A stretch of DNA of 64,000 nt from Alphaproteobacteria bacterium. GTDB taxonomy: Bacteria > Pseudomonadota > Alphaproteobacteria > RF32 > CAG-239. A model generated the notes under the pieces. It saw only the letters and a program-made list of their open reading frames with translations, searched no databases and was not told the origin of the DNA. The position numbers and the translations under genes were made by a program. Positions 2,046 through 47,783 of this stretch are shown piece by piece (position 1 is the first letter of the stretch; every line of letters starts with the position of its first letter). The stretch spans positions 9,838 to 73,837 of the forward strand of contig JAZNKG010000007.1 of NCBI GenBank assembly GCA_045578445.1, in the 5' to 3' direction.

Positions 2046-2073
2046 AGCGGTGGCTTTTTACCACCGCTTTTTC
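2046..2073. terminator. bidirectional terminator between gpsA and trpB
   Basis: AGCGGTGG-cttttta-CCACCGCT flanked by T/A runs, between convergent genes. Confidence 0.7.
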
Positions 2074-2074
2074 T

Positions 2075-3253
2075 TTATATACCATATTTATCTGCAATAA
2101 AATCTAGGTCTTTATCACCTCGCCCCGATAAATTTACTAATATAGTTTTATCGTTTGGCATTGTTTTTGCTAATTTTGTAGCAAAAGCTAATGCGTGTGC
2201 GCTTTCTAATGCAGGAATTATTCCTTCTGTTTTAGGTAATTCATAAAAAGCTTGTAGACACTCTTTATCATCTATTGCTACATATTTTACTCTATTTATA
2301 GTATGTAAATATGCATGTTCAGGACCAACTGATGGATAATCTAAGCCACTTGCTATTGAATAAACTGGGGCTGGGTTATTTTTATCATCTGTTAGAACTA
2401 ATGATTTGAAACCATGGATGATACCTTCTTTTCCAAAAGTTATAGTTGCGGCGTGCTCGCCTAATTTTGTCCCCTTACCTAATGGTTCTACTCCATATAG
2501 TTCAACACTTTTATCTTTTATGAAACCGCTAAATATACCTATGGCATTGCTTCCTCCGCCTACACAGGCTATAACTGCATTTGGCAATGATCCTGTATCT
2601 TGAAGCATTTGTGACTTTGCTTCTTCGCCAATTATTGACTGATAATCTCTTACAATAGTTGGGAATGGATGTGGTCCTACGACTGAACCGATGCAATACA
2701 AACTATTTTCTACATCTTTTAAATATGCTTCAAATGCGCTATCTACAGCTTCTTTTAAGCTTTTTTGCCCATGTGTTACGGGGACGATTTTGCATCCTAA
2801 TAATTTCATGCGCAATACGTTTGAACGTTCTTTTATTATATCATTCTCCCCCATATGTATTTCACATTCTAGTCCTAAATATGCGGAGGCTGTTGCTAGA
2901 GCTACACCATGTTGCCCTGCTCCTGTTTCTGCAATTACTTTCTTTTTTTTCATAAATTTAGCTAATAGAGCTTCTCCGATACAATGATTTATCTTATGTG
3001 AACCGGTATGATTTAGGTCTTCTCTTTTTAGATATATTTGTGCTCCACCTATTTTTTTAGTTAAATTTTTTGCATATGTTATTGGGGTTGGTCTTCCTTG
3101 ATAGGTACGTCTTATATATTGCATATCTTCAACAAATTGGGGATTATTTTTTAGCTCAATATAAGCTTGTTTTACTTTTTGCATTTCTTGGTTTAGTTCT
3201 GCAGAAATATATGCTCCACCAAATGGACCGAAAAATCCTGATAAATCTTTCAT
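2075..3253 (-). CDS. trpB: tryptophan synthase beta chain (stand-alone)
   Basis: PLP-lysine motif [20 protein letters not shown] and GGGSNAIG motifs, 392 aa. SD AAGGAAA. No trpA or other trp gene is adjacent. Confidence 0.92.
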
Positions 3254-3337
3254 GTTATTTTCCTTATATGTATTAATATTATGTGATTTTTTGCCTATTA
3301 GGTTGGCTAGACCGTATAATAAAAATGTATAGGTGCG

Positions 3338-3409
3338 TTAGCACCACCAAAACCATACGTTGGTAGAGTTTAATATTTTAGCAATAAATTTCGTTTTGCA
3401 TATCTTCAT
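3338..3409 (-). CDS. candidate Trp-rich leader peptide (23 aa) upstream of trpB
   Basis: Not in the ORF track. Reverse-strand ATG at 3409 reads MKICKTKFIAKILNSTNVWFWWC-stop, with three Trp codons in the last five sense codons. The stop lies 84 nt upstream of the trpB ATG, and alternative hairpins overlap the Trp codons. Confidence 0.5.
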   Translation of the reverse strand: MKICKTKFIAKILNSTNVWFWWC

Positions 3410-3416
3410 GATGTTA

Positions 3417-3444
3417 ATTATATGGTCTCTTTTTTATTAATCAA
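3417..3444 (-). promoter_or_regulatory. candidate sigma70-type promoter for leader peptide/trpB
   Basis: Reverse strand TTGATT-16 nt-TATAAT. The -10 element ends 7 nt before the leader ATG, which would make the leader ORF leaderless (no SD is present). Confidence 0.45.
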
Positions 3445-3533
3445 TACTTTTGATATAAAAAAATATTTATACTAAGCTTGTTTTTATTTTTTCTATTACC
3501 ATATTTAGCTTTTGTAATAATAAAGGTGATAGT

Positions 3534-5843
3534 ATGAAAAGAATTTTGTTTTTATTTGTGTTTATCTTTGGTTTTATAAATATTGCTATTGGTCAAGTAT
3601 CTGATAAAGAGTTTAATCTAACACAAAGCAACAAAATTTTAGATAAAATTTTCAAAGAATTAGAAGACAAAAATATTACTAGAAAGCAAACAGCTAATTT
3701 TATTGAAGAAATTACTAACCTTAAAGCAACTCTTATTCTTAAAAAAAGTGATTATAATATTGAATTCGAAAATTTAGAAAAAAAGATACTTGCTCTTGGA
3801 GAAAAGACTGACAAAACTGAACCAATTGAGATAGCTAAACAACGAGAAGAATTTGCTACAAAAATTGATAAGGTTAAAACTCAAATAGCTCAGATTGATT
3901 TACAACTAGCAAAAATTGATGAAATTAATGGACTTGTTCTAAAAATTAGAAATCAACAATTACTAGACAATATATTAGTTAAACAAAGTTCTATTTTTCA
4001 TCCTGAAGAATTTTGGTATTCTATAGTAAAATTTTCTGAATTTATTTTTGAGCTAGTTAAGTCTCCTTTAAATTGGCATTTACACTTAGATGAAAAGCAG
4101 AAAAATATTGTATCTGAAAAAATTTATTTTATGAGCATTAGTATTTTGTTGATGGTACTTATTGCTATTGTTGTAAGATTTTATATTAAAAAGTTTTTTG
4201 GATATAATGATTTGATTATAAAGCCTAATTATTCTCAAAAAATTAGCACAGCTATTGGTATGTTTGTTGTTTATAGTTTAATTCCTATTACTATTTTTTT
4301 AACTTTTATGTTTTGGTTTAATAATCTTCCATTATTAAATGATGGCGCTTTTGGTATTTTAGTAAAAAATACGGTTTTATATATATTTTATTATTATCTA
4401 TTAAAATCTTTTTTTAAGATAATCTTTAGCCCTTATGAAAGCAAATGGCGTATTATTGAAATTGATAATGAAAAAGCGAAAACTATATATTCTGTTGTTA
4501 TTTTTTCTTCTTTTTTAATTTGCGTTGTTTCATTTTTTCAAAATATTGCTAATCAAATCAATTATGATGCGTCTATCGTTTATTCTATAAAAATATTTGC
4601 TAATGCTGTTAAGGCATTTTGCATTATTTTGATTGCAAGAAAAACCTTATATACAAATAAAACTCTATCTGATGATGAAATAAAAAATGAGGAAATTATT
4701 ACAGAGCTTAGTACATCTTCAAAGTTGAGCCTTTTTATTATTTTTTCTATGATTATTGCTTTTATGTTTTCTTTATTTGGGTATATTAGGCTATCTGAAT
4801 TTATTATTAATCGATTTATTTATTCTATTATTGTTATTGGTTTATTTTATATTTTTGATAAACTAATTAGAGCTATTATACACCAAATTATGTTATTAAA
4901 GGTGTGGGTGAAAACTTTTAGAATAAATAGAAGGTCGTTAGTTAAAACAGAATTTTGGATTGGGTTATTATTAAGTCCTATTATGTGGATTGTTGCAATT
5001 TTGGTACTATTGGCTATTTGGGGTGTTTCTGTTGATTTATTGATAGCAAAGGCTAAGGGTATCTTTATTGGTTTTAATATTGGGGGTGTTCATATTTCTA
5101 TAAGTTCTATTTTGTTAGGAATTTTGAGTTTCTTTGTCTTGCTATCATTATTTAAGATGCTAAAAAATAGCTTTATTAATGGAAAACTTAGCCATATTGA
5201 AATGAATGATGGTTTACGCAATTCTGTTGTTTCTTCTATTGGCTTTTTAGGATTTATTGTATCTGGAATTTTAGCTATAGCTATTATGGGGGGAAGTCTT
5301 ACAAATATTGCTTTTATTGCTGGTGCACTTTCTTTTGGCATGGGTCTTGGCTTGCAGAACATGGTTAGCAACTTGGCTGCTGGTTTAACCATATTATGGG
5401 CGAGACCTATTAAAATTGGAGATTGGGTAGTTATTAACGGTTTAGAAGGTGTAGTTAGTCAAATAAATATGCGTTCAACAGAAATTAAAACATGGGATAA
5501 ATCAACTGCAATTATACCTAATTCTGATATTTTATCAAAAAGTTTGATTAACTATACCTATTCAGGAAGAATTGGTAGAGTTGTAATTAAAGTTGGAGTT
5601 GATTATAATAATGATGTAAAAAAAGTTAAGGAAGCTTTGTTAAATATTGTTAATACTGACGATAAAATTTTACAAATTCCTGCCCCATCGGTTAATATTA
5701 ACGGAGTTACTGATGGAAATTTGATTTTTCAACTGATTTGTTTTACTGATAACGTTTTTAATAGAGCCAGTATCAGCAATGATTTGAGAGAAAATATAAT
5801 TGACTATTTTAGAAAAATGAATGTAACTATATATTTTATATAG
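3534..5843 (+). CDS. MscS-family mechanosensitive channel, MscK/KefA-like architecture
   Basis: MscS core near the C-terminus: GLGLQNMVSNLAAGLTILWARPIKIGDWVVINGLEGVVSQINMRSTEIKTWD. Signal peptide, coiled-coil region and many TM segments precede it. SD AAAGGTGA. Confidence 0.85.
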   Translation: MKRILFLFVFIFGFINIAIGQVSDKEFNLTQSNKILDKIFKELEDKNITRKQTANFIEEITNLKATLILKKSDYNIEFENLEKKILALGEKTDKTEPIEIAKQREEFATKIDKVKTQIAQIDLQLAKIDEINGLVLKIRNQQLLDNILVKQSSIFHPEEFWYSIVKFSEFIFELVKSPLNWHLHLDEKQKNIVSEKIYFMSISILLMVLIAIVVRFYIKKFFGYNDLIIKPNYSQKISTAIGMFVVYSLIPITIFLTFMFWFNNLPLLNDGAFGILVKNTVLYIFYYYLLKSFFKIIFSPYESKWRIIEIDNEKAKTIYSVVIFSSFLICVVSFFQNIANQINYDASIVYSIKIFANAVKAFCIILIARKTLYTNKTLSDDEIKNEEIITELSTSSKLSLFIIFSMIIAFMFSLFGYIRLSEFIINRFIYSIIVIGLFYIFDKLIRAIIHQIMLLKVWVKTFRINRRSLVKTEFWIGLLLSPIMWIVAILVLLAIWGVSVDLLIAKAKGIFIGFNIGGVHISISSILLGILSFFVLLSLFKMLKNSFINGKLSHIEMNDGLRNSVVSSIGFLGFIVSGILAIAIMGGSLTNIAFIAGALSFGMGLGLQNMVSNLAAGLTILWARPIKIGDWVVINGLEGVVSQINMRSTEIKTWDKSTAIIPNSDILSKSLINYTYSGRIGRVVIKVGVDYNNDVKKVKEALLNIVNTDDKILQIPAPSVNINGVTDGNLIFQLICFTDNVFNRASISNDLRENIIDYFRKMNVTIYFI

Positions 5844-13434: not shown

Positions 13435-16400
13435 TTACATATGTTTTCTGCACATTTTCAAGTACATCGCTTGTAAATTCCTACTAAGCTTATTACCTTT
13501 TCTTTCTTTGTCAATCTTTTCTTTGCGTTCTTTTTTACTTAATTTTTCTATTTCTTTTGTTTTGAAAGGATTATCTTCTGAAAACTGTAGTGCTTCATCT
13601 ATTTTTTTATTTTCTTCTTTTTGTTGAGTGATTGGTTTGGCTTGAAAAGTAATTTTTACTGTTTCTTCTTCTTTTTTACTAGTTCCAATCTTGGATACTT
13701 TTTTCTTTATTTGATTTATAGCTAGCTTAGCTAAAAACTTCTTATCTTTTAATATTCCACTTAAAACATTATCAGATATTGTGTGGTCAAGCATACCAGA
13801 ATTAGCTATTGATGATATTATTTGAACAAAATCATTTGCTGTTAAGCTTTTACTTTCTTTTATGACCTTACCATTGCTATCTTTTTCTTCTTTTTGATAT
13901 TCGCAAATATCAGCTAATGCAATACATCCTCTTTGAATGTCTGAAATATAAGAGGCATCTTTGCCTTGCTTTTCAAGTTTTTCAACCTCTCTAAACATTA
14001 CATCATTAATCTTTTCTCCGTTTATAACAGATTTTATAACTTCAGCATAGAAATGTGCTGATGATAATTTATCTTCTTCGCTAGGTGCTTTTCTTAAAGC
14101 TCCAGTATCAAAAATATTAACGTCTACGCTTGTTATTTTACCGTTTTCATCACGATTAACATTGAAATTTTGTTGTCCTGCATGTCTATCAATATCCCAA
14201 GCTCGACCGCTCAATAAAATTCCTAACTCTGTGGTCAAATATCCTATGGCTAATATTTTTTTCTCTTCTGGGGTACAATCTATTTTAGCTAAAGACTTAC
14301 CGTCTCCAAATTCCATTTCTTTATATCCTGAACCTGTTTCTTTATTATAATTCCAGTCTTTCCATGGACATAGACTAAGATTAAACTTAACACCATCAAC
14401 TTCTAGTTTATCTACCATATTGTAATTTTTATATGCTTCTACATATTGAGCATAGCCCATTGCAATATCAATTTCTGTCTTTGCGCTTTCTTCTGCTCTA
14501 GCTACAATTGTCTTTAAAACAGAGTATTTGTTATCTTTTTTAGATAATTCTTCTATGGTTCTGCCTATTTTTTTAAATTCATTATATGCATCTTTGGCGG
14601 CATTTTGACGCATCATTTGTAATACACTTTTTTGACCTTCTTGGTCCTCTACCTCAACTGATATATAAAATGAACCAGCACCAAGAACTTTGCCAACTCT
14701 TTTTATTGATTTTAACTTTTCTTCTGGAAGATTTTCTTTTAATTCTTCATATATCTCCCATCTATTCAATGTTGTAGCTCTATCTTTTAATACAGATAAA
14801 GGTTTTCTGATATCGTCTGGTAAATTAGGTATATTTGACAATGCTTGTCCGAACTTTACCCAAGCTGGACCATTGTTTGAGCAAAACTTTGCTAAAGCTT
14901 CACCGATTGACATATTTACACTTTGACCGTCTTCAGTTGGCTTTTTGGCTGCTAACATTGCGCCTAACATAAATCTTGCTTGATCTTTACGGTAATAGCC
15001 TGCTCCTAGTCCTCTTGCATATAAGCTACATAATATATTATTGGCATCTTGGTAATAGGGATCATCTTTTTCCATAAATTTATCTAGCACAACTTCAACT
15101 GCTTTATTAACATTATTTTTAGAGTAGTTGCCAAGTAATCTCTGCATTACAACAGCACCTTCCTCTATGCTCTTTCCCCTAAATTCGCTATGAAATATTT
15201 TTAAATCTTCATTTCTTATTTCATCTAAGCCTTTCTTTAAGTCATCTTTTTCTTCTTGTGTCATTGGTACAGGGGCTTCGCCACTTTGATGAGACATTAT
15301 CAGCGGATAAATATCGCATAGATTTGTGTGTAAATTTTTTTTGAAGTTATCAATACTTTCTTGGGTGCAAGGTTCTGTTAAAAAATTTATAACATCTAAA
15401 TTACTATTTGGACATACTGTTAAAAACTCATTTAGTGAACTTATCACTCTTGCAGAAGCTTCATTTTTGAACCCTAAATCATTATCATCTTCTTGGTGTT
15501 TAAGTGATATTGCAAATTTTTCAGATAAATCTTGTTGAGCTTCAATTTTGTTTGCAACTAATGCAAACAATTCGTTCTTTACAGTATCGCTCATAGTTTG
15601 ATTTGTAAAATTCATAAATGATATAATATTGTTATGGTATGATACTATATCTTCGTTGGTTACAGATGTACCATCGCTCTTTGTATTACCTAAAATAGGT
15701 TCTTTTCCGATACGGCTTGTATATATATTTGCATATTCCTCTTCAAAAAATTCACGTATTGGACGATAATCAACTGAATTTACAATATCAACTTTATCTG
15801 TAATTTTCACTCCTAAAAACTTATCATATTGTTTATATGGTATTTTTTTATCTTGAAGCATCATTATTGCTGCATTTTCTTTTTCTTCTTCTGGCAATTT
15901 TAAATATGATTGTTTCAATTGCTCTAAAAACTCAAATTTTATTTCGCTTTCTGAATCAAATAACGATTTATGAGACATTAAATCATATATTTCTTTTTGT
16001 TCATAAATACTTAAATCTTTAAAACCATGATTTAATATGTAATTTGAAATATAATTACAAAATTCCTTAGATGATGTTTTCACATATGTAATTTTAGGGT
16101 AAGACTCTAATAATTTTTTAATATCTACAGGTGGATTTTCTGGATTATTTAAGTATCGTAAAACTTCATATTCTGCAAATATATATTGTTCCATTCCTAA
16201 TAAAACCTTAGGAAGACCATTATAATCTCCATTACGATAATTTTTATCATTAATTGTTTCTTGAAGATTTGCATATAATTGTTCTGGATTTTTATCAGTT
16301 TCTTTTAATCCTAATTTAGCTCTACAGGTTTCATAATAAGGTATTTTTTTATTTACATAAATTGTTGCGGCATGAAAGTTATCCTTACTTCCTATTATAC

Positions 16401-42153: not shown

Positions 42154-42654
42154 TTAGTATGACATTGTCAAAGTAATTTCACCAGTATAAACGCCTGATG
42201 GTTGATTTGCTTTGATATGTAAGTCAGCACCAACTTTTACCTGATCACTACCATCTGTAATTTTTTGTTGTGTTTGAGAATAAGCACTATCATCAACTAA
42301 CAAAGTAAAATTATTTAATTCCATAGTATTTACACCATTACTTAATACGGTTTCAGCAACACTAATAGTGTAAGGTGTACCTGTATCACCTGTAATAGTA
42401 AATTCTGCAGCTTTTACAGCATCACCACGTGCACTAGTTACATCAGATAATTCGCCATTAGGAGCCAACTTAGCTGTTTGTGCCTGAGGAGAACTAACAA
42501 TTGTACCAAAATTCATATCTTGTGTTTTCGTTACACTACCTGCTCCTACGATAGTTGCTGTTACTGTTGCAGTTTCACTTTTTGAAGCTGCAAACGAGTT
42601 ATTAGCGCACAAAACTAAAACAGAAAATACTGTTAATAATAATGCTTTTTTCAT
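42154..42654 (-). CDS. secreted pilin-like subunit (DUF4402/SCPU-like)
   Basis: Signal peptide MKKALLLTVFSVLVLCANNSFA, then ATVTATIVGAGSVTKTQDMNFGTIV...AAEFTITGDTGTPYTISV...GVYTGEITLTMSY. Confidence 0.62.
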   Translation of the reverse strand: MKKALLLTVFSVLVLCANNSFAASKSETATVTATIVGAGSVTKTQDMNFGTIVSSPQAQTAKLAPNGELSDVTSARGDAVKAAEFTITGDTGTPYTISVAETVLSNGVNTMELNNFTLLVDDSAYSQTQQKITDGSDQVKVGADLHIKANQPSGVYTGEITLTMSY

Positions 42655-42761
42655 ATCAATCCCCTTTTCATAAAAACTATATTATTTGTCTAAAGACTAG
42701 AATAAAAGTTATTAACATTTTACTAATAAAAAAAACTTTTTTTACCAAAGCTAAGTTATTG

Positions 42762-42777
42762 AAAAAAAAAAAAAAAA
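42762..42777. repeat. A16 homopolymer tract in the divergent pilus intergenic region
   Basis: 16 consecutive A residues counted directly. A T8 run lies at 42842-42849. Confidence 0.95.
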
Positions 42778-42894
42778 CAGAAATTTTTTCTACAGGTGAA
42801 AAAATAGCAAAATTTCACCTAATTTTATTGCTAAATATGTGTTTTTTTTGTACTTTTTTATAGTAAGATATTGGATATTTTTAAAGGACTGGGC

Positions 42895-43899
42895 ATGAAA
42901 CGCAATCTTATTATTAACCTATTGTTTTTATTTGGTTTTATTCTATTACCTATTAAATATGTAAATTCAGCTGATTATACAACTACTGGCTCTATTGATT
43001 TTGGAGTTATTATGCAAAATGCAATTCCTTCTATTATACCTGTTACATCCGATGGTTTAAGAGATGAATCTGGTACATATGGGGTATACAGGGCGCAAAA
43101 TCCATCAGTTTCCAATACAATTACATTTACAACTACTGGTAATATCATTGTTGGTGAAAGAATAATCATTACAAACAATATGAATACTGAAGAGTTTAAC
43201 ATTGATGGTTGTTCTCATTCCTTTTCAAATGTTTCAACACAAAATAATAATTTCTTTATGTCTTCATCATCCTATAGTTTGCCATTTTCTTTAACATTAA
43301 CTATATCTAACTTTTGTACACCTGATAAAAATTATACTGGTCAATTTTATATTCAATACCGTACGCAAACTTGTATTTTAGGTGGTCTTTTGGGATGTTA
43401 TGATAACGAAGGAATAAATGAAGTTCCTTTCCAATATTCATTTAGGATTGAAGAGCCTTTAGGAGCTGATGAAATTGAGGCGTTAAATTTTGGGGCAATT
43501 ATGCCAATTTTTGACGGTGCTGGAACAGTAACCATTGCTCCTGAGGATGAATCAGTTACTGTAACCGGCGATATTAAATATTTATATTCTGGTTATTCGC
43601 GTGGAATTTATCAAATTTATGGCATCGGAAACCGTATGGTTAATATAACTATGCCAGATAGCGTTATTATAACAAATGTTTCGAATGATAGTGGCGATAC
43701 AATGGTTGTAAATAACTTTAGGGTTTCATCTACATATAATTACACGCAAACCAATGATGGTGCCAAAGTAGAAATTCCCTTAAACGATTTGAGTTTTGAC
43801 AACTATTCTAACTTTTTTGTTGGAGCAACATTAAATGTTGGAGCCGGAGTATCTGAGGGGCAATACCGTGGAGAATATACAATTTATTTAAGTTATTAG
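42895..43899 (+). CDS. two-domain pilin-like subunit (candidate tip/adhesin subunit)
   Basis: Signal peptide, then two tandem pilin-like modules (DFGVIMQN... and LNFGAIMP...VTVTGD...YQIYG...GQYRGEYTIYLSY). SD AAAGGA before ATG 42895. Confidence 0.55.
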   Translation: MKRNLIINLLFLFGFILLPIKYVNSADYTTTGSIDFGVIMQNAIPSIIPVTSDGLRDESGTYGVYRAQNPSVSNTITFTTTGNIIVGERIIITNNMNTEEFNIDGCSHSFSNVSTQNNNFFMSSSSYSLPFSLTLTISNFCTPDKNYTGQFYIQYRTQTCILGGLLGCYDNEGINEVPFQYSFRIEEPLGADEIEALNFGAIMPIFDGAGTVTIAPEDESVTVTGDIKYLYSGYSRGIYQIYGIGNRMVNITMPDSVIITNVSNDSGDTMVVNNFRVSSTYNYTQTNDGAKVEIPLNDLSFDNYSNFFVGATLNVGAGVSEGQYRGEYTIYLSY

Positions 43900-43927
43900 T
43901 TTGATAGAAAAAAGGAGTAATTGATTT

Positions 43928-44701
43928 ATGAAAATAAAACTAAAATATTTAACACTTTTATTGTTATTAATAGCAAATGTGGCAAAAGCCAATATTTCTA
44001 TTTATCCGTTTAGTGTTGATTTTAAAGATGGGGCAAGAAAACGTGTGCAAAGTATACGCATTATTAATTCATCCAATGAAATACAGACTTATCGTGTGAG
44101 TATGGTTGATTTTGCGCAAGATGAGAAAGGAAAATTAGTAGAAATTAAAGGAGCAGAAAATTCTGCAACTCCTTATGTAACTTTTTCTCCTCGTCAATTT
44201 ACCCTAAAGCCCAAAGATGTGCAAACTGTGAATGTGGCTAGACGTAGCTTAGCAAAAGCTAAAGATGGAGAATATGTTTCTCACTTAAAAATCAGTGAAG
44301 TGAATTTAGGTGCTCCTAAATTGAAAAACGAAAAAGAAAACTCTGACGCTATTTCTATGAAAATAGATGTGTTGTTTGCAGTTACAATTCCTGTAACTGT
44401 TGAAAAAGGTGATAATTTGGTAGCTAAAACTTCTTTGGTTAGTTGGAAGAAGATTGGTAGTGACAAACTAAATATCACTCTTAAAAGAGAAGGAAATAAA
44501 TCTTCTCGTGTAAATGCTTATGTTTTAGATAAAAAGAATCAGGAACTAGGCAAAGTTAAAGGTATTAAAATCTATATGACGACTGATATCCTTAATATAG
44601 ATATACCTTTGAACAAAAATGTAACTAATGAGAATGCTTTATTGAAACTAGAAGATGCACAGTCTGAGAAAGAAATACTTAGACAGCCAATTAAACTATA
44701 A
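43928..44701 (+). CDS. periplasmic pilus chaperone (PapD-like fold)
   Basis: Signal peptide, NISIYPFSVDF....R.QSIRIINSSNEIQTYRVSM and two beta-sandwich-sized halves. Sits between the subunit and usher-like genes. SD AAGGAG. Confidence 0.68.
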   Translation: MKIKLKYLTLLLLLIANVAKANISIYPFSVDFKDGARKRVQSIRIINSSNEIQTYRVSMVDFAQDEKGKLVEIKGAENSATPYVTFSPRQFTLKPKDVQTVNVARRSLAKAKDGEYVSHLKISEVNLGAPKLKNEKENSDAISMKIDVLFAVTIPVTVEKGDNLVAKTSLVSWKKIGSDKLNITLKREGNKSSRVNAYVLDKKNQELGKVKGIKIYMTTDILNIDIPLNKNVTNENALLKLEDAQSEKEILRQPIKL

Positions 44702-47700
44702 ATTTATTATTTGTTTATGGACTGTTTTTATTTTAGTTCTGCCACTTGTGGCTAGAGCTCAGACAGTTATAAGCTTTTCTGACGAAAATAATACTGTTAA
44801 TCAACTAGAAGAAAGTGAAGATATTTTCAATTTCTCTGGTGATTTATTGATTTTAGAGCCTGTTATTCAGGGATTTAACCTTAGCGACTATGCTTATGTT
44901 TCTCAAACTGACGGCAAAGAATATATTGCCTTAAGCCAAATGGCCCAATATCTTGGTATTAAGTATATTAAAAACCCTAATAATACTACCAAACTATGGT
45001 ATGCAGATAATGAAGATGTTGTATACTTTATTGATTTTGTAAACCGTAAAGTTATTTTGACCGATAATAAAGGTTATATAAAAGAAGATAAATTTTGGTT
45101 TAGAGATTATGATGTTGATGTTATTGATGAAACTATTTTCTTTAGTGTAGGTTTTTGGAGAACTCTTTTAGAGGCAGATATTGAAATTGATGAACTCAAT
45201 ATGCAACTTGTTATTAAAAGAGAAAAAGACTTCCCTACTATTGCAAAAATGCGTGCAGAGAAAAAACGTAATAATCAAGGTTTCCGTGAATTTAGTAAAG
45301 ATAGTATTTCCGATTATGATTTTGACGATAGATTAATAGCAGAACCTGTACTTGATGTACAACTTGGTAAAGGCTGGGGACATAATAAAGGCGGTAGAAC
45401 TTATAATAGCGACAACTATGCTGTTAATCTTGCAATGATTGCAGGAGGACTTGATGTTAATACTTATGTTAGTGGCAACTCTTCTAATGATAGAAAACCT
45501 ACGGTTAGAATTAGCGGTAGTAGAACTTTCTTAGATGAACCTGAAAATGCTTTTAACTTAAAAACATTAAAAGTTGGTGATATAAGTGGTATTAGTCAGT
45601 CTTATTTTGCTAATGCTGGATATGGTCGCGGTGTGGCCTTGTCATCATTTAAAAACTTAGTAATGTCTGCTGATAAGACTATTGATTTGACTGGTCCGTT
45701 AACTCCAGGGTGGGAAGTTGAACTTTATTGGAATGAACAGCTTATTGGATTCAGACAAAGTGGTATTAATGGCGAATATAACTTTAATGATATTCCAGTT
45801 TCTTATGGTTTGAATACATTTAAGTTAGTATTTTATGGGCCCTATGGAGAGACACGAACTGAATATGAAAGATATTATTCTGGTACTAGTCCAGTGAAGA
45901 CTGGCGAATTTGGATACAATATTTCTGCTTATCAGCCATTTAGATATTTGGTAGAAGACAATAGAACGTTTCAATATGATGGCTCTGATACTCCTATTAT
46001 TGATATGACTGGATATTACGGTGCTACTGATGATTTGACATTGATGGGTGGTTTTACTCAAACTCCTAGTGCTGAAGATAGCTTTGAGACACAATACTTT
46101 GGTATGGCTGGTGCGCAGATGTCTATGTCTGGTAGTTCCATCCAATATAACTTAGAACAAAATTTAGATACTGCAAAATTAGGTCATCATTTAGAATGGC
46201 AGGGTGATGTTTATATTGGTAATATCTATGCCGGATATGATAAATATAATGGAATACATTCTCCTAACTCTTTATACTCTGATGAATATTTGGATGAGCA
46301 ATATGAAGCAAGACTTTCTGGTATATTACCTTGGAATGTACCTTACTATTTAAGTTATCGTACAGGTAAATTGGAAAGTGGTGATATTACTTTTGAAAAT
46401 ATTTCTGCCAGACTTTCTAAGAGATTGACTAACGGTTTGAACTTAACTCTTGAAGATAGCTACTATGGTTATGGCTCAGGTAGAGGTTATTCTAATGTTG
46501 TTCGTACAGGATTGTATAAATGGTGGAATCTATTTTCTACTGAAACTTGGGCCACTTATAGAACTGATCCTGATCCTGAACTTACAGAAGTTCAAGCGAG
46601 AATTGACTGGCGAGCTGGCAGGAACACTTATGTTACAGGAAGATGGACCAGAAATATGCTTAATGATATGGACTACTTCTCTGTTTCAGGAGGTCATGTT
46701 TTTGACTTCGGAGGCTTAACTGCCACTTTAGAGAGTGATAGAGATTTGAACTTAAGTACTTATTTAAATTATAATATCAGCTTTGCTAGAGAACCTAAAT
46801 CTTTTGGAATTGTTACAAATGCTAATTCAAAATTAAGTTCTAGTGGCACAATGTTTGTTAAAGTTATTGACGAAGAAGGTAATCCTGTACCAGAAGTGGG
46901 GCTTAATGCTAACGGATTGGACAAACAAGTTTATACTGATGAAAAAGGTACTGCTATTTTGGCTGACCTACAAACTTACGAACGTACAATTCTTAGAGTT
47001 GATATGGAATCCTTGATTGATATTTCTTTACAACCAGAAGAAGAAATCAAAAAAGTTGTGCTACGCCCTGGCACTATTAGAACTGTTGATTTGAAATTTA
47101 TTCATAAAGGAGCTGTCGAAGGTAAGATTGCTAACCCTGAAGGTAAGCGTTTGTTTGGTTATCAGATTTCTGCGATTGATAAAGATGAGAAGGAAATCGC
47201 TCAAACTTTTGCTGATTTAGATGGTTATTTTATTTTAGATGGTGTGCCTTATGGTACTTATAATATCGTTATTTCTAAAGAAGGTAGCATATTAACAGAG
47301 CTTGTTGATGTTAAAGTTGATGATGTGTCTGTTTATTTGGAAGAAGAAATTGTTGTTGATACTGATGCTATTAACTTCTTTGAAAATATTGATACTGAAA
47401 ATGAAACAAATCGCTTTGTTGAAGAACACGAAAAAGGGTTTAATAATGAAGAATATATGAATAATACATTCCCTATTGATATTGAAAAGGCTGTTATAGA
47501 ACCAGAAGAACATCAACCTATCATTACCATTGAAGAAATTGAGAAAGATATTTTTGTAAATCCTAATGCAGAAGTGTTTAACTCTGTGGCATCTCAACAA
47601 TCTTATGATAGATTTATTGCTGTTGAAAAGCCTAAATATGATGATGTATCTATGGAAAGTATAGAAAAAGAAATCTTTGGTATTAGTGACAAAGATGCTG

Positions 47701-47783
47701 AAATTATTGATAATATTCAAAATGAACTTGATGCTAATATTGCGTTGAAAGAATTGATGGATACTGTTGATAGTATCGAATAA
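44655..47783 (+). CDS. usher-like outer-membrane assembly protein with C-terminal CarboxypepD_reg-like domains and an acidic tail
   Basis: 1042 aa with a signal peptide ...LVLPLVARA and a long Gly/aromatic-rich region of alternating beta-strand character. Two VKVIDEEGNP.../GKIANPEGKR...GYFILDGVPYGTYNIVISKEG modules follow. The usher call rests on synteny. The start is uncertain; the ATG 44655 start overlaps the chaperone gene by 47 nt. Confidence 0.5.
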   Translation: MHSLRKKYLDSQLNYKFIICLWTVFILVLPLVARAQTVISFSDENNTVNQLEESEDIFNFSGDLLILEPVIQGFNLSDYAYVSQTDGKEYIALSQMAQYLGIKYIKNPNNTTKLWYADNEDVVYFIDFVNRKVILTDNKGYIKEDKFWFRDYDVDVIDETIFFSVGFWRTLLEADIEIDELNMQLVIKREKDFPTIAKMRAEKKRNNQGFREFSKDSISDYDFDDRLIAEPVLDVQLGKGWGHNKGGRTYNSDNYAVNLAMIAGGLDVNTYVSGNSSNDRKPTVRISGSRTFLDEPENAFNLKTLKVGDISGISQSYFANAGYGRGVALSSFKNLVMSADKTIDLTGPLTPGWEVELYWNEQLIGFRQSGINGEYNFNDIPVSYGLNTFKLVFYGPYGETRTEYERYYSGTSPVKTGEFGYNISAYQPFRYLVEDNRTFQYDGSDTPIIDMTGYYGATDDLTLMGGFTQTPSAEDSFETQYFGMAGAQMSMSGSSIQYNLEQNLDTAKLGHHLEWQGDVYIGNIYAGYDKYNGIHSPNSLYSDEYLDEQYEARLSGILPWNVPYYLSYRTGKLESGDITFENISARLSKRLTNGLNLTLEDSYYGYGSGRGYSNVVRTGLYKWWNLFSTETWATYRTDPDPELTEVQARIDWRAGRNTYVTGRWTRNMLNDMDYFSVSGGHVFDFGGLTATLESDRDLNLSTYLNYNISFAREPKSFGIVTNANSKLSSSGTMFVKVIDEEGNPVPEVGLNANGLDKQVYTDEKGTAILADLQTYERTILRVDMESLIDISLQPEEEIKKVVLRPGTIRTVDLKFIHKGAVEGKIANPEGKRLFGYQISAIDKDEKEIAQTFADLDGYFILDGVPYGTYNIVISKEGSILTELVDVKVDDVSVYLEEEIVVDTDAINFFENIDTENETNRFVEEHEKGFNNEEYMNNTFPIDIEKAVIEPEEHQPIITIEEIEKDIFVNPNAEVFNSVASQQSYDRFIAVEKPKYDDVSMESIEKEIFGISDKDAEIIDNIQNELDANIALKELMDTVDSIE

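Follow-up and report, generated by a model that had tools for sequence, protein, structure and literature searches.

A putative leaderless, antiterminator-less tryptophan attenuator upstream of a solitary trpB gene in uncultured Alphaproteobacteria

How does a trpB gene that stands apart from every other trp gene keep in touch with the tryptophan supply of its cell? The question is raised by a 64,000-nucleotide (nt) stretch of contig JAZNKG010000007.1, from an alphaproteobacterium (the window, by which we mean this whole stretch), in which the minus strand carries a full-length, bona fide trpB, as judged by its match to the TIGR00263 profile. Profile searches found no trp gene besides trpB in the 64 kb of the window, and no trp gene adjoins trpB in any of the loci fetched for comparison, in agreement with an earlier note on this DNA that had called the gene solitary. 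The same note had drawn attention to a mini-open reading frame (ORF) that opens at 3409, comprises 23 codons with three UGG among the last five sense codons and stops 84 nt before trpB, and to a promoter, TTGATT-16-TATAAT at 3444 to 3417 on the minus strand, which ends 7 nt before the ATG of the ORF and leaves no room for a Shine-Dalgarno (SD) sequence; both are found in the sequence exactly as described. Regarding the Trp attenuator that was proposed from these features, the Trp leader ORF, its leaderless start and its association with a lone trpB hold up in the analysis presented here, but the classical switch between alternative RNA helices does not. On the evidence of sequence comparison, we describe the region as a real, conserved cis-regulatory element of the leader-peptide attenuation type, predicted to be leaderless and antiterminator-less, with the sensor codons and the stop codon placed in its only hairpin.

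The Trp codons of the leader ORF

The comparison rests on 16 distinct trpB upstream regions, the window included, with TrpB identities of 71-99%. These loci were collected by a genome scan with the TrpB protein and with 12 TrpB relatives retrieved by a protein search, and they derive from metagenome-assembled genomes labelled 'Alphaproteobacteria bacterium' or from unlabelled metagenome contigs. In all 16 regions a leader unit lies directly 5' of trpB, and it is built from the same parts: a promoter, an ORF of 20-23 codons, Trp codons confined to the last seven positions, and a stop codon in or at the foot of a hairpin that is followed by a U-rich tract. Alignment of the upstream regions of orthologs, which the earlier note had named as a check on the Trp codons, finds the mini-ORF and its Trp codons retained in every one of the 16, and the association of the Trp-codon leader with trpB is thereby borne out. 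The genes that surround trpB vary from locus to locus and include gpsA, NUDIX, GDSL lipase, aminoacyl-tRNA synthetase, Lon/HU, type IV secretion coupling protein and NusB/ligase genes, among others. In the two Lentisphaeria trpB loci that served as an outgroup (L004 and L005, 61% identity) no comparable leader was found. In L133 and L134 a tRNA-like sequence ending in CCA (at about 2230-2310) abuts the leader promoter on its upstream side, a neighbourhood which shows what appears to be a compact insertion of the promoter-leader-trpB unit between unrelated genes.

The frame of the leader ORF is open in all 16 regions, and the other two frames are open in one and three of them. Within the last seven residues Trp occupies 39 of 112 positions, against none of the 242 positions elsewhere in the peptides and a Trp frequency of 0.66% in the large ORFs of the window. 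A Trp is present at position -2 in 16 leaders and at -3 in 14, and nine carry an extra Trp at -5 to -7; the peptides end in WWC (13 leaders) or else in YWC, WWH or RWC. The stop codon is exchanged among UAA, UGA and UAG at a constant position, and the peptide outside the C-terminal Trp and Cys residues drifts freely. A short ORF enriched in codons for the pathway's final product, here with a WxWWC C-terminus, is characteristic of leader-peptide attenuators, and sequence comparison reveals both start signals and coding constraint on the ORF. Since extra Trp codons are found outside the stem in nine leaders, and since L142 has Trp-Cys-stop combined with an unrelated hairpin, the UGG triplets appear to have been selected as codons and not merely as bases of a stem. 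From these comparisons, which lift the pattern far beyond chance, we conclude that the mini-ORF is real, coding-constrained, selected for its terminal Trp codons and functionally tied to trpB.

It could be argued that tryptophan is not sensed at all, and that the ORF encodes an independent small protein, with its basic N-terminus, hydrophobic middle and WWC tail, or that the locus produces a terminated RNA of about 85 nt acting in trans, in either case with the UGG triplets as by-products of the stem. The terminal Cys is kept in 15 of the 16 leaders, and in S. meliloti the attenuator RNA and the leader peptide are both reported to act in trans (PMC6614838, PMC7298713). However, it is only the C-terminal Trp and Cys that are conserved in the peptide, Trp codons occur outside the stem and also alongside the unrelated hairpin of L142, and the unit is always found directly 5' of trpB despite genome rearrangement. 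We therefore regard an explanation that dispenses with Trp sensing as extremely improbable, and we hold it very probable that the leader senses Trp-tRNA and controls trpB.

The last codon of the ORF deserves a remark of its own. The conserved Cys extends to L142, where its UGU codon lies outside the hairpin, and L002 and L130 have additional Cys codons near the end of the ORF, the frequency of Cys in the proteome being 0.76%; the terminal Cys may be a remnant of the structure, or else another amino acid that the leader senses. In the window, moreover, the leader frame stays open past the TAA and runs in frame to the trpB ATG, over 84 nt or 28 codons. Read-through or frameshifting into trpB was considered and rejected, and the in-frame run is probably a coincidence, because the distance from stop to ATG is a multiple of three in just 5 of the first 13 leaders.

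In 13 of the 16 regions a gap of 6-7 nt separates the end of the -10 box from the leader ATG, and because of this short gap the mRNA is predicted to be leaderless, with transcription starting, we infer, at the A of the ATG or directly beside it; the leaderless start suggested by the earlier note is upheld to this extent. No convincing -35/-10 pair that could serve as a second promoter is readable inside the spacer between the leader and trpB. On the opposite strand, a promoter-like TTGCCT-18-TATAAT at 3291-3320 (plus strand) points antisense through the leader ORF toward a divergent MscK-like gene (3534-5843), and a comparable TTGCCT...TAAAAT is readable in L006; such sites occur at chance level in this DNA. 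The coordinates of all features are collected in Table 1.

Table 1. Features of the trpB leader region and of trpB, in positions of the window
Feature	Coordinates	Strand	Remark
-35 box TTGATT	3439..3444	minus	TTGAYW with a spacer of 16-17 nt in nearly all 16 regions
-10 box TATAAT, ending 7 nt before the leader ATG	3417..3422	minus	gap of 6-7 nt in 13/16
Leader ORF MKICKTKFIAKILNSTNVWFWWC, 23 codons plus TAA (3340-3338)	3338..3409	minus	open in 16/16
GUAUG, able to pair with UAUAC (3331-3327) and so to extend hairpin 1 to the U-run	3354..3358	minus	window-specific
Trp codons W19 (3355-3353), W21 (3349-3347) and W22 (3346-3344), followed by Cys (3343-3341)	3344..3355	minus	
Hairpin 1: 5' arm GGUGC (end of W22 and Cys codon), loop UAAC (stop UAA and C), 3' arm GCACC	3332..3345	minus	
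U-rich tract: spacer UAUACA, U5, AUUAU	3316..3331	minus	
Spacer of 84 nt, C-rich and G-poor, with Shine-Dalgarno AAGGAAAA at 3265-3258	3254..3337	minus	
Hairpin 2, GCC-AACCUAAUA-GGC, then A6 and UCACA	3282..3307	minus	modest structure excess
trpB (tryptophan synthase beta, 392 aa), putative regulated gene	2075..3253	minus	TIGR00263, 545 bits (cutoff 392)
trpB terminator: strong 8-bp hairpin AGCGGTGG...CCACCGCT between A-runs and T-runs	2046-2068		between convergent trpB (end 2075) and gpsA (end 2040)

The hairpin at the stop codon and the search for a second helix

In the RNAalifold analysis of the aligned leaders the sole conserved structure is hairpin 1, GGUGC-URAY-GCACC, whose sequence is identical in 13 of the 15 aligned leaders and which, folded alone, reaches -8.0 kcal/mol (z -2.07 against shuffles). 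Departures from this form are few: in L143 the loop has 5 nt; in L136, whose peptide ends in WWH, a compensatory, re-registered hairpin GUGGC-ACUGAGC-GCCGC keeps the stop codon in the loop and has UUAUUUUUU directly 3'; and in L142, which ends in RWC-UAG, an unrelated 7-bp hairpin takes the final base of the stop codon as its first, with AUUUUAAUUUU coming after it. Past the stem, U accounts for 61% of the first 12 nt, against 30% in the remaining spacer, and 13 of the 16 leaders have a run of at least four U within 14 nt, where the background is 0.23. A longer, composite hairpin, GUAUG...UAUAC, had been drawn in the earlier note; it can indeed fold in the window (-8.9 kcal/mol, z -1.42), but its outer stem is particular to the window and is not conserved.

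In a classical four-segment attenuator, a ribosome halted on the Trp codons would leave a segment on its upstream or downstream side free to build an antiterminator in competition with the GGUGC/GCACC terminator, and mutually exclusive pairings of this kind had been postulated for the locus. In fact, CUACCAA is able to pair with UUGGUGG in the window, and a CACC segment is present just 5' of the Trp codons in L137 (8 bp), L140 (6 bp) and L136 (5 bp). Nevertheless, pairing between the upstream part of the ORF and the Trp region is no better than in shuffled sequences in all 16 leaders (p 0.4 for the window) and is not conserved, RNAalifold returns hairpin 1 alone with no conserved second helix, a ribosome stalled at the Trp codons would cover the very segment needed for the pairing, and there is no downstream hairpin with a U-run to act as a 3:4 terminator. 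On the downstream side, the 3' arm is weakly complementary to a GG segment located some 20 nt further on in several leaders (best p 0.01-0.09); this 2:3-like pairing was rejected, its individual instances being non-significant and their combination marginal at best. With just one conserved hairpin and with alternative pairings at chance, the terminator/antiterminator switch of the earlier note is no longer tenable as it was drawn, and we consider a classical design very unlikely at this locus.

Further into the spacer, hairpin 2 occupies a segment whose structure exceeds that of shuffles to a modest degree (mean z -0.71). At the same place, about 10 of the 16 leaders have stems of other sequence, namely GCCA/UGGC, AAUCC/GGAUU, AUCC/GGAU, GCCGC/GCGGC and CCCU/AGGG; such counterparts are found 25-45 nt past hairpin 1 in L001, L002, L006, L009, L130, L132, L136, L137 and L143, and are absent in L003 and L008. 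The loop begins with ACC or CCC and often ends with UAAC, an A-run and AAUCA usually come next, and the 5' part of hairpin 2 repeats the 3' arm of hairpin 1, mostly as CACCU and, in L136, as GCCGC at both places. A role of hairpin 2 as a protein operator was considered and rejected, the sequences of its arms varying between relatives and yet staying complementary.

Ribosome, polymerase and the fate of the trpB transcript

Based on this arrangement, we hypothesize that a trpL-like cis leader links the lone trpB, whose product makes Trp from indole and serine, to the supply of charged tRNA-Trp. Transcription would begin at the A of the leader ATG or directly beside it, and a ribosome would translate the 20-23 codons of the leaderless mRNA, in which the terminal UGG UGG UGC doubles as the 5' arm of hairpin 1, the stop codon lies in the loop and the U tract follows, the whole amounting to an intrinsic terminator of low strength or to a pause signal stabilised by the hairpin. 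Whenever Trp-tRNA runs short, the ribosome would stall with a UGG in the A site. Ribosome footprint data indicate that occupancy of the A site by either of the universal Trp codons (-2 and -3) puts the 5' arm inside the ribosome, the same placement being predicted in 15 of the 16 leaders and being that of the tlrB-type attenuator discussed below; a starved ribosome should therefore keep the hairpin open, and the transcript would extend into, or survive as, trpB mRNA. When Trp-tRNA is plentiful, the ribosome would finish and depart, the hairpin would close and trpB expression would be attenuated. The ribosome itself would thus be the antiterminator, by direct occlusion, and no separate antiterminator helix would be required. 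Taken as a combined statement, namely a ribosome-mediated Trp attenuator that is leaderless and has no antiterminator, its hairpin being kept open by a starved ribosome on UGG, this reading seems to us moderately probable. Its specific step, termination governed by direct occlusion, is proposed more tentatively, as a possibility that falls somewhat short of even. The direction of the regulation, as well as the step at which an open or closed hairpin would act, be it pausing, Rho or mRNA decay, is what we infer from the layout of the leader.

Taken by itself, the sequence of the window is not compelling: the 168-nt leader as a whole has no better fold than its shuffles (z -0.34), and promoter-like sites are found at chance level in this DNA of 30% G+C (113, against 112 in shuffles). 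Other observations weigh against the interpretation itself. The RNAalifold alignment contains no base-pair covariation within the canonical hairpin 1, because its sequence is the same in nearly all aligned leaders. The stem has only 5 bp and the U-run begins 3-7 nt past it, while the intergenic terminators of the same window have stems of 7-13 bp that abut their T-runs, and L009, L133 and L137 keep the hairpin without a U-run; hairpin 1 with its U tract is, by the look of these features, weak for a terminator. The spacing is a further difficulty. Counted from the A of the leader ATG, W21 lies at 61-63, W22 at 64-66, the end of the 3' arm at 78 and the U5 run at 85-89, so that the Trp codons precede the U-run by about 20-25 nt. 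This is less than the distance between ribosome and polymerase, since in published structures of collided expressomes the active site of the polymerase lies about 30-34 nt in front of the P site of the ribosome. Because of that spacing, W21 would reach the A site no earlier than the polymerase reaches about nt 88-92, in or past the U-run, and a race decided at first passage is predicted to give read-through with a close ribosome and termination with a lagging one or none, independently of Trp. Trp-specific control therefore needs the polymerase to pause for long in the U tract, or else a step that comes once it has passed, and on these distances the textbook kinetic explanation is insufficient.

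What the spacing alone predicts for a first-passage decision is in fact a reversed logic, in which the hairpin terminates transcripts that lack a close ribosome, a stall at W19 makes the ribosome lag, and Trp starvation consequently lowers trpB expression. While W19 occupies the A site, the stretch that the ribosome keeps unwound in front of it would stop short of the 5' arm, and the single Trp codon of L142 lies just before its hairpin, both of which would suit such a device. Yet it would be physiologically senseless for the last enzyme of Trp synthesis, and it is the universal Trp codons that lie within the stem (-2 and -3), an upstream Trp being present in 9 of 16 leaders only. We judge the reversed logic to be highly improbable.

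Another way around the spacing problem would be a decision taken after the polymerase has passed and set by the dwell time of the ribosome on the Trp codons. In a first version, triggered by starvation and following a tna/speF-like logic, the parked ribosome would mask the start of a Rho loading region; in a second, it would keep RNases off the leaderless 5' region and off the AU-rich tract, in the manner of ermC-type mRNA stabilisation. In both, hairpin 1 and the U tract would be a pause site or a decay determinant and not a regulated terminator. Several findings agree with this explanation: the spacing makes a termination decision at first passage implausible, three leaders keep the hairpin without the U-run, and the gap of 3-7 nt between stem and U-run is more like that of a hairpin-stabilised pause, for which the pauses of the his and trp leaders are the established basis of comparison, than that of a terminator. 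The composition of the spacer points the same way, with 20% C and 8.75% G in the window, against 11.6% C and 13.0% G in 33 other upstream regions of the window; the spacers of the 16 leaders have 19.7% C and 10.9% G, are C-rich and G-poor in 15 cases, and resemble, in this respect, a Rho loading site. On the other hand, no rho gene lies within the 64 kb window, a stalled ribosome covers only about 12-15 nt beyond the P site and would leave most of the spacer free, hairpin 1 would itself conceal the first C-rich motif from Rho in Trp-replete cells, and the sequence indicates no specific RNase site. We consider this explanation unlikely in either version.

A third possibility places the control at translation initiation, in the style of the mycobacterial poly-Cys leaders, where there is a precedent (10.1101/834739): the ribosome binding site of trpB would be engaged in pairing by the 3' part of the ORF, and a stalled ribosome would free that site. 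Two leaders fit this scheme well. In L136 (at about 2380-2500) the ORF segment AUCCUCUG, just before the Trp codons, is a perfect complement of the trpB SD region CAGAGGAU (-13.3 kcal/mol, p 0.003), and in L142 (at about 2395-2500) the ORF segment AUAUACUCC, likewise just before the Trp codons, pairs with the trpB SD region GGAGUAUGUAU (-13.8 kcal/mol, p 0.013). In contrast, the duplex between ORF and SD is at chance in the window (-4.5 kcal/mol, p 0.54) and in 13 other leaders, and the predicted accessibility of the SD shows no consistent change when a ribosome footprint is imposed. Translational attenuation as the general mechanism is thus highly unlikely, and the complementarity in L136 and L142 suggests that the lineage may have tried more than one output.

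Finally, the leader may be a minimal attenuator working by an undescribed principle, in which the outcome is set at or after the collision of ribosome and polymerase and not by a race between helices. Trp codons, stop codon and the single conserved hairpin 1 are all packed within about 25 nt, and the leading ribosome would meet the paused polymerase as a UGG enters the A site, with a hairpin that persists in the open state, exclusion of Rho or a protected leaderless 5' end as possible outcomes; hairpin 2 and its A-run (3307-3282) would be an unexplained part of such a device. We regard this principle as rather unlikely.

A Trp-codon leader in front of a trp gene would by itself be unsurprising, and it is the geometry and the leaderless, minimal design that are noteworthy. 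If the attenuation proposed here proves true, leader-peptide attenuation would extend to uncultured, low-G+C Alphaproteobacteria known solely from metagenomes, whose sample labels suggest an origin in animal gut or rumen, and to a lone trpB, that is, to the indole-salvage step. Empty tRNA-Trp would then switch on the conversion of indole to Trp, which bears on the exchange of indole and Trp in gut communities. It would also be the smallest design known to us for this job, with no 5' untranslated region, no antiterminator, and with codons, stop and hairpin superimposed, and its misfit with textbook kinetics would make it a natural test case for ribosome-polymerase proximity, pausing and termination.

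The unit also offers a search signature that may be of use for leaderless attenuators overlooked by gene callers and by Rfam. About 170 kb were scanned on both strands for places where a promoter, an ATG within 5-9 nt of it, a short ORF with a hairpin at its stop codon and a U-run come together, and besides the trpB leaders this generic scan gave just a few featureless matches, so that the signature, with its promoter 6-7 nt before the ATG, is highly specific in this amount of DNA; no further leader-peptide attenuator of the same build was found in the window or in the fetched loci. A PF00793-family gene in L133 has a promoter upstream but no leader ORF. A metagenome scan with the pattern TGGTGGTGCTRAYGCACC found no leader among the at least 120 loci listed, the matches being CTG-GTG-GTG-CTG-AYG-CAC coding sequence of high-G+C organisms that the R/Y degeneracy of the pattern admits.

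Elsewhere around trpB and in the window, the hairpin between the convergent trpB and gpsA genes is likely a bidirectional terminator for both. Two very large ORFs on the minus strand, 13435-19101 (1888 aa) and 21248-26221 (1657 aa), have almost no Pfam match, the only one being a weak Peptidase_M48 stretch in the latter. At 42154-47783 the genes for two DUF4402 proteins and for a 1042-aa protein bearing a CarboxypepD_reg-like domain are clustered with an unassigned ORF, and this cluster may be a surface or fimbrial-type locus.

Relation to known leader-peptide systems

No description of this trpB leader element was found in the open-access literature. At the Rfam gathering threshold the window contains only two tRNAs, with neither a Trp leader (RF00513) nor a T-box, and a permissive search of 3150-3600 gave nothing but noise (fstAT, 21 bits against a cutoff of 72 bits). 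The likeness to trpL of E. coli and other Gammaproteobacteria (RF00513) lies in the short leader ORF, in the tandem UGG codons and, as proposed here, in the sensing of charged tRNA-Trp through the position of the ribosome. The 1:2 pause hairpin of E. coli trpL has the Trp codons in its 5' strand and the stop codon between the strands, which is the placement found here. The trpB leader differs from it in being leaderless, as predicted, and devoid of an SD, and in having no match to the Rfam model. It also has neither a 2:3 antiterminator nor a 3:4 terminator set apart from hairpin 1, the U tract coming directly after the hairpin that holds the Trp codons, and it precedes a lone trpB and not a trpEDCBA operon.

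The tnaC leader of E. coli, with about 24 residues and a long spacer to the structural gene, senses free Trp through the nascent chain (W12, D16, P24), blocks Rho and induces a catabolic operon. The trpB leader is similar in peptide size and in its long spacer, but its Trp residues come last and induction would be expected upon starvation; a TnaC-type arrest motif is not apparent, no Asp or Pro being conserved in the peptides of the 16 leaders. In both systems, what becomes of the transcript further downstream would depend on a ribosome that has come to rest at the end of the leader, as reported for tnaC (PMC8429421).

Among the Alphaproteobacteria, the class to which the present leaders also belong, S. 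meliloti has a trp leader (trpL/rnTrpL) which reportedly encodes a 14-aa peptide with consecutive Trp codons, is subject to ribosome-dependent transcription attenuation and precedes trpE(G), whereas trpFBA has no leader (PMC6614838). Its terminator and antiterminator are classical, and no sequence similarity to the trpB leader was detected. Attenuators in front of trpB as the first gene have been proposed in C. diphtheriae, for the operons trpB1EDGC and trpB2A, and in actinobacterial ilvB leaders the codon runs overlap candidate terminator hairpins, the mode of regulation of which was left unsettled in that 2005 study (PMC1262725). These actinobacterial trp and ilvB leaders have GC-rich terminators and, in the case of trp, antiterminators, and they are not described as leaderless, in all of which the present leaders differ.

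Leaderless leader peptides are themselves not without precedent. In Deinococcus deserti, a member of another phylum, leader peptides are translated from a 5'-terminal AUG, including one ahead of trpEGD, and attenuation was proposed (PMC4007540); there the starts were mapped by RNA-seq, and here the start is deduced from the promoter. In mycobacteria, leaderless short ORFs with poly-Cys tracts, the Cys 'ribulon', control a biosynthetic gene through stalling at regulatory codons at their 3' end (10.1101/834739), but there the codon tract pairs with the downstream SD, the control is translational and no terminator is involved, whereas pairing of this kind is missing in the window and found only in L136 and L142.

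The direct-occlusion step, in turn, has its counterpart in tlrB (yxjB) of B. subtilis, where an intrinsic terminator is not overlapped by any antiterminator, the foot of the terminator is retained by a ribosome that has stalled on the C-terminal codons of the leader peptide, a released ribosome stops interfering with termination, and a NusG-dependent pause, which supplies the timing, is required (PMC6851288). The signal in that system is an antibiotic together with an RYR arrest motif, and the trpB leader is proposed to respond to hungry codons. The terminator elements of tlrB extend from about +71 to about +131, with a termination peak at +142 (PMC6851288), so that the polymerase has tens of nt left to travel while the ribosome acts, whereas the hairpin of the trpB leader spans 14 nt in all.

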